DNA of 598 bases from Escherichia coli (GCF_003334255.1 NZ_QOWU01000213.1); one strand, 5' to 3'; numbered from the stretch's first letter, positions 1 to 587 are shown. Notes: generated by a model from the letters alone, not told the origin. Program-made: numbers and translations.

Positions 1-237
1 AAAAAAGGCGTTACGGACTTTCAGGGGAAGTAGTGGTCTGGTGACTGGAAATATGTACCGAAAAAAGAGGATTGTAACGACAGGCCGAACTATGAAATTC
101 AGGCCTTATTCACTGCCCCGCCAGTCCCGGTTACATCAGAAGAACTGGTTAAAGCTGTGCACTTTTATGAACAACTAAAACGCGAAAATCCACCAGCATC
201 CGGAAACCTGATTACAGATTCCCAGATAAGGCAATGA
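1..237 (+). pseudogene. 3' part of a protein-coding frame (frame 1) of unknown product, interrupted by an in-frame amber codon (TAG 31-33), ending at TGA 235-237
   Basis: Frame 1 is open from the window edge to 237 except for a single TAG at 31-33. It translates as KKGVTDFQGK*WSGDWKYVPKKEDCNDRPNYEIQALFTAPPVPVTSEELVKAVHFYEQLKRENPPASGNLITDSQIRQ*. The composition is balanced and protein-like, with about 31% G at codon position 1 and frequent CCG, CTG, AAA and GAA codons. There is no in-frame ATG between 34 and 237, and the only in-frame GTG (157-159) would give 26 aa. Frame 2 is also open from 2 to 175, but its translation has no Asp or Glu, is Arg/Lys-rich, and has only about 11% G at codon position 1, so it looks like an out-of-frame shadow. 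Whether the upstream gene simply ends at 33 or the whole stretch is a nonsense-disrupted gene cannot be settled from this window. Confidence 0.4.
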
Positions 238-307
238 GCTACCTGGCGCAGAACGGGCTGATAAGTATGGGGAATGTTTTACGATGAATATTTAGACTAA
301 AGAGTTT

Positions 308-407: not shown

Positions 408-587
408 ATGAAAAACGCATTGCAGTTTTTGTTTGTTGCGTTCTGGTTGTTCGTATCATGTATGCCCATCATCTTCACAGCAAGGTATATGGAAAAAGTT
501 GATGTTTTGATATTAATATTTGGATATATAAATGCCCTTTTTTTAGGGGTGTTCATGGCGGTCATGTGCATTGAATACTGGCGGTAA
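408..587 (+). CDS. small hydrophobic membrane protein, 59 aa, two predicted transmembrane helices, function unknown
   Basis: ATG 408 to TAA 585-587 encodes MKNALQFLFVAFWLFVSCMPIIFTARYMEKVDVLILIFGYINALFLGVFMAVMCIEYWR. There are two hydrophobic stretches (about residues 4-25 and 33-55) separated by a short charged loop RYMEKVD, with a short C-terminal EYWR. A strong SD sits upstream. GC is about 37% with rare codons (ATA x3, TTA, AGG, CGG, GGA). The supplied 72-aa ORF from GTG 369 is the same frame with an N-terminal extension that I consider unlikely. Confidence 0.7.
   Translation: MKNALQFLFVAFWLFVSCMPIIFTARYMEKVDVLILIFGYINALFLGVFMAVMCIEYWR

Follow-up and report, generated by a model that had tools for sequence, protein, structure and literature searches.

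The closest described relatives of the locus analysed here are the intact members of PHROG 660, the Ead/Ea22-like early proteins, and a pseudogene that is already annotated in Escherichia coli. Two intact members of PHROG 660 are VUD37832.1 of mEp460_4F5, a 155-aa protein that contains ...WRYRYVRKGVTNFQEKPWVGDWKYVPTKEDCNDRPNYEIQALF..., and a 171-aa protein (P0017), whose gene lies in the same neighbourhood as the locus (DUF977, DUF7167, a 58-aa gene, the gene itself, hok, DUF968, and Q). These members share with the window (the whole 598-nt stretch of E. coli DNA that was analysed, numbered from its first letter) the common core WRYRYVKKGVTDFQ..W.GDWKYVP.KEDCNDRPNYEIQALF...VKAV.FYEQ.K.ENPP. 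Unlike the window, they are uninterrupted: they carry a sense codon where the window has an in-frame amber codon (CCG in VUD37832.1), A6 or AGAAAA instead of a run of eight A, and a complete C-terminal module. Ead/Ea22-like early proteins (PF13935) occur in lambdoid and P22-like phages, and in some family members (P0068) an Ead/Ea22 module is fused N-terminal to the same core. The window allele, in contrast, lacks the Ead/Ea22 module, and its core is covered by no Pfam model. Such mosaic early genes are assumed here to be non-essential.

The third relative is the same DNA as the window, and its annotation was as follows.

E. coli MCJCHV-1, NZ_CP030111.1 2872149-2872465: RefSeq/PGAP pseudogene DPQ29_RS26450
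L001 (the MCJCHV-1 locus) 7921-8237, equal to window -79 to 237: PGAP/RefSeq pseudogene call, "hypothetical protein; frameshifted; internal stop"

Nothing of substance distinguishes DPQ29_RS26450 from the window, and for the window allele PGAP places the end at 237. Equivalent PGAP pseudogenes were found in the three further genomes inspected (CXV43_RS25330, H7R13_RS24330, and CU076_RS27730), and the call was made alike in genomes with six, seven, or eight A in the run (A6, A7, and A8). The feature is an ordinary pseudogene that was already known, being annotated as such by RefSeq/PGAP. Compared with the intact members of PHROG 660, window positions 1 to 287 very probably belong to a dead accessory gene of this family and cover its 3' four-fifths; the gene resides in a lambdoid prophage and carries three lesions. 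The homology, the shared neighbourhood, the lesions, and the population distribution were observed directly, and we infer that the allele gives no functional product.

The window was 100% identical to many E. coli chromosomes in a search of complete genomes; 1,823 of 5,426 complete genomes gave a match, with 592 records at 99% or above. On the MCJCHV-1 locus, window position 1 corresponds to L001 8001, and the setting is a lambdoid prophage with the following genes around the window.

L001, 5' of the window: recE-like gene (frameshifted), dicB, ydfC, ydfB, truncated LexA-family repressor gene, cro, ydaT, replication gene, DUF977, DUF7167, 58-aa gene
L001, 3' of the window: sok/hokD, DUF968, rusA, Q, two tRNAs, iraM, frameshifted DUF6645 gene, holin gene, partial ydfR
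L001 8677-8848: sok antisense RNA (Rfam RF01794, 106.7 bits), about 80 nt 3' of the window
L001 8846-9001: hokD

The dead gene is thus situated in the early-right (nin-like) region of the prophage, between the replication genes and hok/sok, and from this position the intact gene is most likely an accessory early gene. The suggestion of the initial annotation that the locus was a decaying accessory or prophage-like one agrees with this setting, in which several other pseudogenes are present. Neighbouring genes with internal stops were also observed elsewhere, namely the DUF7167 gene in strain 300709 and an upstream hypothetical gene in WP8-S17-ESBL-05 (L132 301-483 and L133 1-209); the decay of this part of the prophage therefore extends beyond a single gene. 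The Rfam scan revealed no RNA family inside the window, and sok was the only match above the gathering score. An isrK-like match (L001 9010-9091) remained below the threshold (27 bits, where the gathering score is 50) and lies beside a terminator-like hairpin at 9070-9087. Promoter and terminator scans gave nothing exceeding shuffled sequences. Among the places matched in the search with the window, 114 were on plasmids. A 52-mer centred on the amber codon had no plasmid match, so the plasmid copies either are a different allele or cover only a different portion of the window.

The reading of the window in the former coding frame and the lesions within it are listed below.

Window 1-30, plus strand: frame-1 remnant codons KKGVTDFQGK, approximately residues 27-36 of the intact protein
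Window 31-33, plus strand: in-frame amber codon TAG; the site is CCG, CAG, CTG/TTG, ATG, or TCG in intact homologues
Window 34-200, plus strand: frame-1 remnant of the conserved core, WSGDWKYVPKKEDCNDRPNYEIQALFTAPPVPVTSEELVKAVHFYEQLKRENPPAS, homologous to intact alleles
Window -1 to 6 (in-window part 1-6), equal to L001 7999-8006, plus strand: A8 homopolymer; intact alleles have six purines, A6 or AGAAAA
Window 2-178, plus strand: frame-2 open frame from an ATG at window -79, ending at TAA 176-178
Window 201-237, plus strand: out-of-frame tail GNLITDSQIRQ in frame 1, ending at TGA 235-237 and created by a 61-nt deletion
Window 201-287, plus strand: remnant of the native C-terminus, RKPDYRFPDKAMSYLAQNGLISMGNVLR, in frame 3, ending at TGA 285-287; homologous to ...AQPDCKLPEKAMDYLKRNGLISVEDVLR of the 171-aa allele

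Frame 1 on the plus strand consists of KKGVTDFQGK, TAG at 31-33, 67 sense codons at 34-234, and TGA at 235-237, which is the layout that had been described from the sequence alone. The accompanying statement that the stretch after the TAG has no ATG and no usable GTG or TTG was accurate for ATG and TTG, but one in-frame GTG is present at 157-159 and opens a 26-aa ORF; as no Shine-Dalgarno-like sequence precedes this GTG, "no usable start" is a fair description. The stretch had further been called coding-like on both sides of the TAG. Openness alone does not go beyond chance: 53% of mononucleotide shuffles of the window had 67 or more consecutive codons without a stop in some frame, and 4.9% of the shuffles of 1-237 had no more than one stop in a fixed frame of 78 codons. 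What does hold on both sides of the TAG is homology to intact phage proteins, and it is on homology, not on openness, that frame 1 is identified as the former coding frame. Finally, the frame had been described as broken by a single in-frame amber codon. The TAG is real, but it is not the sole lesion, since the A8 run in place of A6 and the 61-nt deletion also disrupt the gene.

A pattern scan of IMG/VR yielded 120 loci, which together with L001 to L009 gave 129 loci for analysis. Of these, 83 were intact at the amber site, 44 carried TAG, and two carried TGG. Six different codons occupied the site in the intact loci, namely CCG (43), CAG (21), TTG (7), ATG (6), CTG (5), and TCG (1), and the position is therefore a variable residue. 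The interpretation of the initial annotation, a nonsense mutation in a longer gene, is borne out by these sense codons and by the sequence that follows. The frame-1 translation 3' of the TAG was 80-100% identical to intact proteins from many phages and prophages, and the protein encoded by the 53 codons from window position 40 was 100% identical to intact alleles of 138-140 aa. Homologues thus do not all end at the position equivalent to 31-33; the intact alleles align downstream of it.

Within the 129 loci, the TAG was always found in the context AAG TAG TGG TCT and was absent from any other haplotype. The nearest intact haplotype has CAG, and a single C-to-T step from CAG would be the most parsimonious origin of the TAG, although TGG is also one step away. 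In the two loci with TGG, the haplotype is otherwise of the TAG type and the A8 frameshift is still present. A second in-frame TAG was identified in the PhiR42_1 type (L004), which also has a 4-nt deletion. This TAG (L004 3208-3210) lies in a 57-bp segment that is absent from the window, and intact alleles have CAG there (GGC AAC CAG ATT). Counting TAG 31-33, the gene lineage has thus undergone a CAG-to-TAG change twice. An origin of these changes at a hotspot of Dcm methylation (CCWGG) was considered and rejected, as neither TAG site is in a CCWGG context.

Two public proteins that are presented as intact (P0005 and P0014) have Gln at the amber position. P0005 was rejected as a CAG allele on an otherwise identical background, because its contig (L005 874-1233) carries TAG and does not translate to P0005. 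It appears to be a gene call made with a TAG=Gln code on a short contig, and by analogy P0014 may be an artefact of the same kind. The true CAG alleles were taken from the DNA survey, and P0005 was left out.

The product of the parent gene is a small modular protein of approximately 104-171 aa that belongs to PHROG 660. The reconstructed protein was 91% identical to intact 104-aa proteins and matched phrog_660 with an E-value of 8.5e-28; when it was searched against a large protein collection, 325 matches were obtained, including intact proteins of 104, 119, and 171 aa. A full HMMER scan of 1.84 billion representatives identified 443 proteins, which form a mosaic of about three modules, and these occur in recombination with different modules at the N- and C-terminal ends, Ead/Ea22 and DUF551 among them. 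By tblastn, 101 phage records contained the family; most were of Stx-converting or other lambdoid phages, and the annotation was always "hypothetical". No match to the family was detected in Pfam even at E <= 10, nor in NCBIfam or PADLOC; a sequence search of the PDB returned only spurious designed TIM barrels, and a literature search returned nothing on this gene. The AlphaFold2 model of the 171-aa allele had a mean pLDDT of 72, with a beta module at residues 20-62 (pLDDT of about 90) followed by helices. In this model the amber site corresponds to residue 37, which lies at a strand of the beta module, so the truncated product would be predicted to lack most of that module. Foldseek searches with the model gave nothing at E <= 0.001 in the PDB, and the BFVD matches were limited to uncharacterised phage proteins and a single Ead/Ea22-like one (TM <= 0.3).

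The native ATG, located 79 nt 5' of the window, shares the sequence ATGA with the stop codon of the gene before it. From this ATG the reading frame encodes MSEVNYQEGHETAGQAKTVAWRYRYV and then enters the run of eight A at window -1 to 6. Relative to the six purines of intact alleles, A8 is a +2 frameshift, which cuts the native ATG off from frame 1. An A6 tract would have expanded to A8, and ribosomes from the native ATG would then pass into frame 2, with an 85-aa chimera as the most that they could produce. The frame-2 ORF consists of 26 native residues followed by the Lys of the A run and out-of-frame sequence, and was called a gene in one phage record (ON470612). Judged from the reading frames, this chimera would be the product of the window allele when translation initiates at the native ATG.

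In the alignment, the 61-nt deletion lies at 200/201 with respect to the 171-aa allele (57 nt with respect to the PhiR42_1 type), and it leaves the native C-terminus in frame 3. The PGAP pseudogene of A6 and A7 genomes (422 and 366 nt) ends at the stop equivalent to window 285-287, in agreement with this mapping of the C-terminus. On these alignments, TGA 285-287 is taken as the true 3' end of the former gene, giving a footprint of 1-287 and not 1-237. A further difference is found at 186/187, where the 171-aa allele has 90 nt (30 codons) more, in frame. The 90-nt segment is present in alleles of 119-171 aa, and the short form is common to the window and to intact alleles of 104 and 140 aa, so the difference may be a module variant and not a lesion. 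Its flanks form the direct repeat GA(G/C)AATCC(G/A)CCAG (window 184-197, against L012), which suggests that a 30-codon module was lost or gained by repeat-mediated recombination.

The TAG allele is widespread and is not private to one strain. In the search with the 52-mer, every 28-base seed included the T of the TAG. The TAG haplotype was found in 1,159 of 5,426 complete E. coli genomes, in all cases on the chromosome and with approximately 925 exact matches, and it was also present in contigs of IMG/VR, ENA, and Logan. A sequencing or assembly error at this position, which the initial annotation had rated as less likely, is refuted by the exact 52-mer in about 925 independent assemblies and has practically no chance of being correct.

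The A run was polymorphic among carriers. Across 46 loci of the TAG-type haplotype, A8 was found in 24, A7 in 8, and A6 in 10, and the remaining 4 combined A6 with loss of a G. For complete genomes, the run was scored with a 64-mer and identity bands in an evenly spaced sample, as the low-complexity filter of BLAST would mask the A run in short queries; the sample of 40 genomes contained about 20 A8, 2 A7, and 17 A6 alleles, and three cases were verified. Further disabling lesions of the gene comprise A7 or A8 in place of A6, the deleted G, the 61-nt deletion, the second TAG of PhiR42_1, and an additional 1-nt deletion at one locus (L118). Because the TAG is common to the A6, A7, A8, and deleted-G alleles, the earliest event was most likely the nonsense mutation. 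TAG 31-33 would have arisen from a sense codon, most simply CAG, cutting the protein after 36 residues, inside the predicted beta-sheet module, and homopolymer slips would then have accumulated under relaxed selection. One stop shared by alleles with several differing secondary frameshifts would be the expected signature of selection lost after a nonsense mutation. The order is deduced from allele sharing; A runs are mutable, and the picture could be obscured by recombination among prophages.

Over the 53 codons that follow window position 40, the ratio of synonymous to nonsynonymous segregating sites was 5:5 in the TAG clade and 35:33 in intact alleles, numbers that have no power on relaxed selection. 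The protein sequence encoded after the TAG is without visible degeneration over these 53 codons. This would fit a young lesion or recombination with intact copies, and would also fit continued constraint. The records vB_EcoS-640R1 and 813R8 are named as phages but are prophages identified in genome sequences (bioRxiv 10.1101/2022.06.29.498070), and they are therefore no proof that a viable phage tolerates the lesion.

In addition, a small ORF was identified downstream of the dead gene.

Window 408-587, plus strand: 59-aa ORF MKNALQFLFVAFWLFVSCMPIIFTARYMEKVDVLILIFGYINALFLGVFMAVMCIEYWR, with a strong ribosome-binding site, Shine-Dalgarno sequence AGGAGG at 399-404, and two hydrophobic segments

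This ORF has no RefSeq annotation; in phage records it is the opposite strand that is annotated, under the label "hornerin" or hypothetical protein. It was intact in 65 of 67 loci; all eight variable sites were nonsynonymous and none was synonymous. No match to it was found in PHROG, NCBIfam, or PADLOC. From its sequence, the ORF may encode a small membrane protein adjoining hok/sok.

Expression through the lesions would call for amber readthrough or suppression at 31-33 and, in A8 alleles, also for slippage at the A run, either by the ribosome (-1) or during transcription. The zero frame of the A8 allele reads GTG AAA AAA AAG, which sets an A_AAA_AAG heptamer in the register of the dnaX-type -1 frameshift site, and a -1 slip there would lead into frame 1. 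This register exists only in A8 alleles, and TAG carriers have A6, A7, or A8, so that no single frameshift direction is conserved. Unlike the dnaX site, the window has neither a stimulatory hairpin nor a Shine-Dalgarno-like element: the sequence downstream of the A run had a minimum free energy of -12.9 kcal/mol (z = +0.76), 157 of 200 shuffles folded at least as well, and no GGAGG-like motif was visible 5' of the run. The shifted frame, moreover, stops at the TAG after ten codons, so two independent recoding events would be required. At the TAG itself, a supE-type suppressor would insert Gln, the residue given by CAG in the nearest intact alleles, and the window resembles phages that read TAG as Gln (genetic code 15) in having an in-frame TAG where its relatives have CAG; some gene callers accordingly gave Q, as in P0005. 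In contrast to those phages, the 16.6-kb prophage stretch L001 encodes no tRNA with a CUA anticodon (ARAGORN detected only tRNA-Met (CAT) and tRNA-Arg (TCT)), and the 24 neighbouring CDSs have no internal stops, in-frame TAG included, two of them ending in TAG as a normal stop. The TAG is confined to one haplotype, and diverged homologues carry six different sense codons. The base after TAG 31-33 is T, which would constitute a strong termination context according to published studies of termination context in E. coli. Recoding is consequently considered extremely unlikely, in line with the lower rank that readthrough and suppression had been given at the outset.

If the gene simply ended at TAG 31-33, or if the 85-aa frame-2 ORF were the real gene, the downstream openness of frame 1 would be due to chance. 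That openness is indeed not significant by itself, and the ATG of the frame-2 ORF is a good one, coupled to the gene before it; ON470612 lists this ORF as a CDS. A true end at 31-33 is, however, refuted by the downstream homology described above, the frame-2 sequence past the A run is restricted to carriers of a frameshift (A8 or G-deleted), and PGAP rejects the frame-2 ORF in favour of the pseudogene; we regard this reading as highly improbable.

Another reading holds that the A tract is a contingency (phase-variation) switch in a locus that is still selected, with slippage of the A run passing the TAG and +1 insertions restoring the C-terminal module. In accordance with this, the length of the A run is polymorphic (A6, A7, A8), and two independent natural alleles combine A8 with a +1 insertion, a T after window 36 in one and an A near window 87 in the other.

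L009 1501-1818: restored allele P0003, insertion equivalent to window 36/37, A8 background
L130 1001-1318: restored allele P0060, insertion at approximately window 87, A8 background

Their 105-aa ORFs pass the TAG in frame 2, return to frame 1, and regain the native C-terminal 60-70 residues, but 11 or 28 residues of the beta module are replaced by out-of-frame sequence. Such alleles are also rare: the first was found in 1 of 129 loci, and the second came from Logan runs SRR33768930 and SRR33769196, which have adjacent accessions and may be one study. Neutral change in a decaying gene is expected to add a +1 indel to an earlier +2 indel, and most carriers (A6, A7, and uncompensated A8) cannot make the protein in any frame. 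A contingency switch is thus very unlikely. The related proposal that the polymorphic A tract and the P0003/P0060 insertions reflect selected "frame-hopping" round the amber codon, reviving the C-terminal two-thirds of the protein, is a long shot. If it were true, the module would still matter to the prophage or its host, and a homopolymer could rescue a nonsense mutation.

The pseudogene reading, which we prefer, describes routine gene decay in a resident lambdoid prophage, of little importance in itself. The locus documents a case in which a nonsense mutation was followed by several independent homopolymer frameshifts, giving a likely order of decay. Public "intact" versions in which the TAG is read as Gln appear to be gene-caller artefacts and could mislead a BLASTX-style check by falsely suggesting a sense allele. 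The parent family is modular and abundant in Stx and other lambdoid phages.
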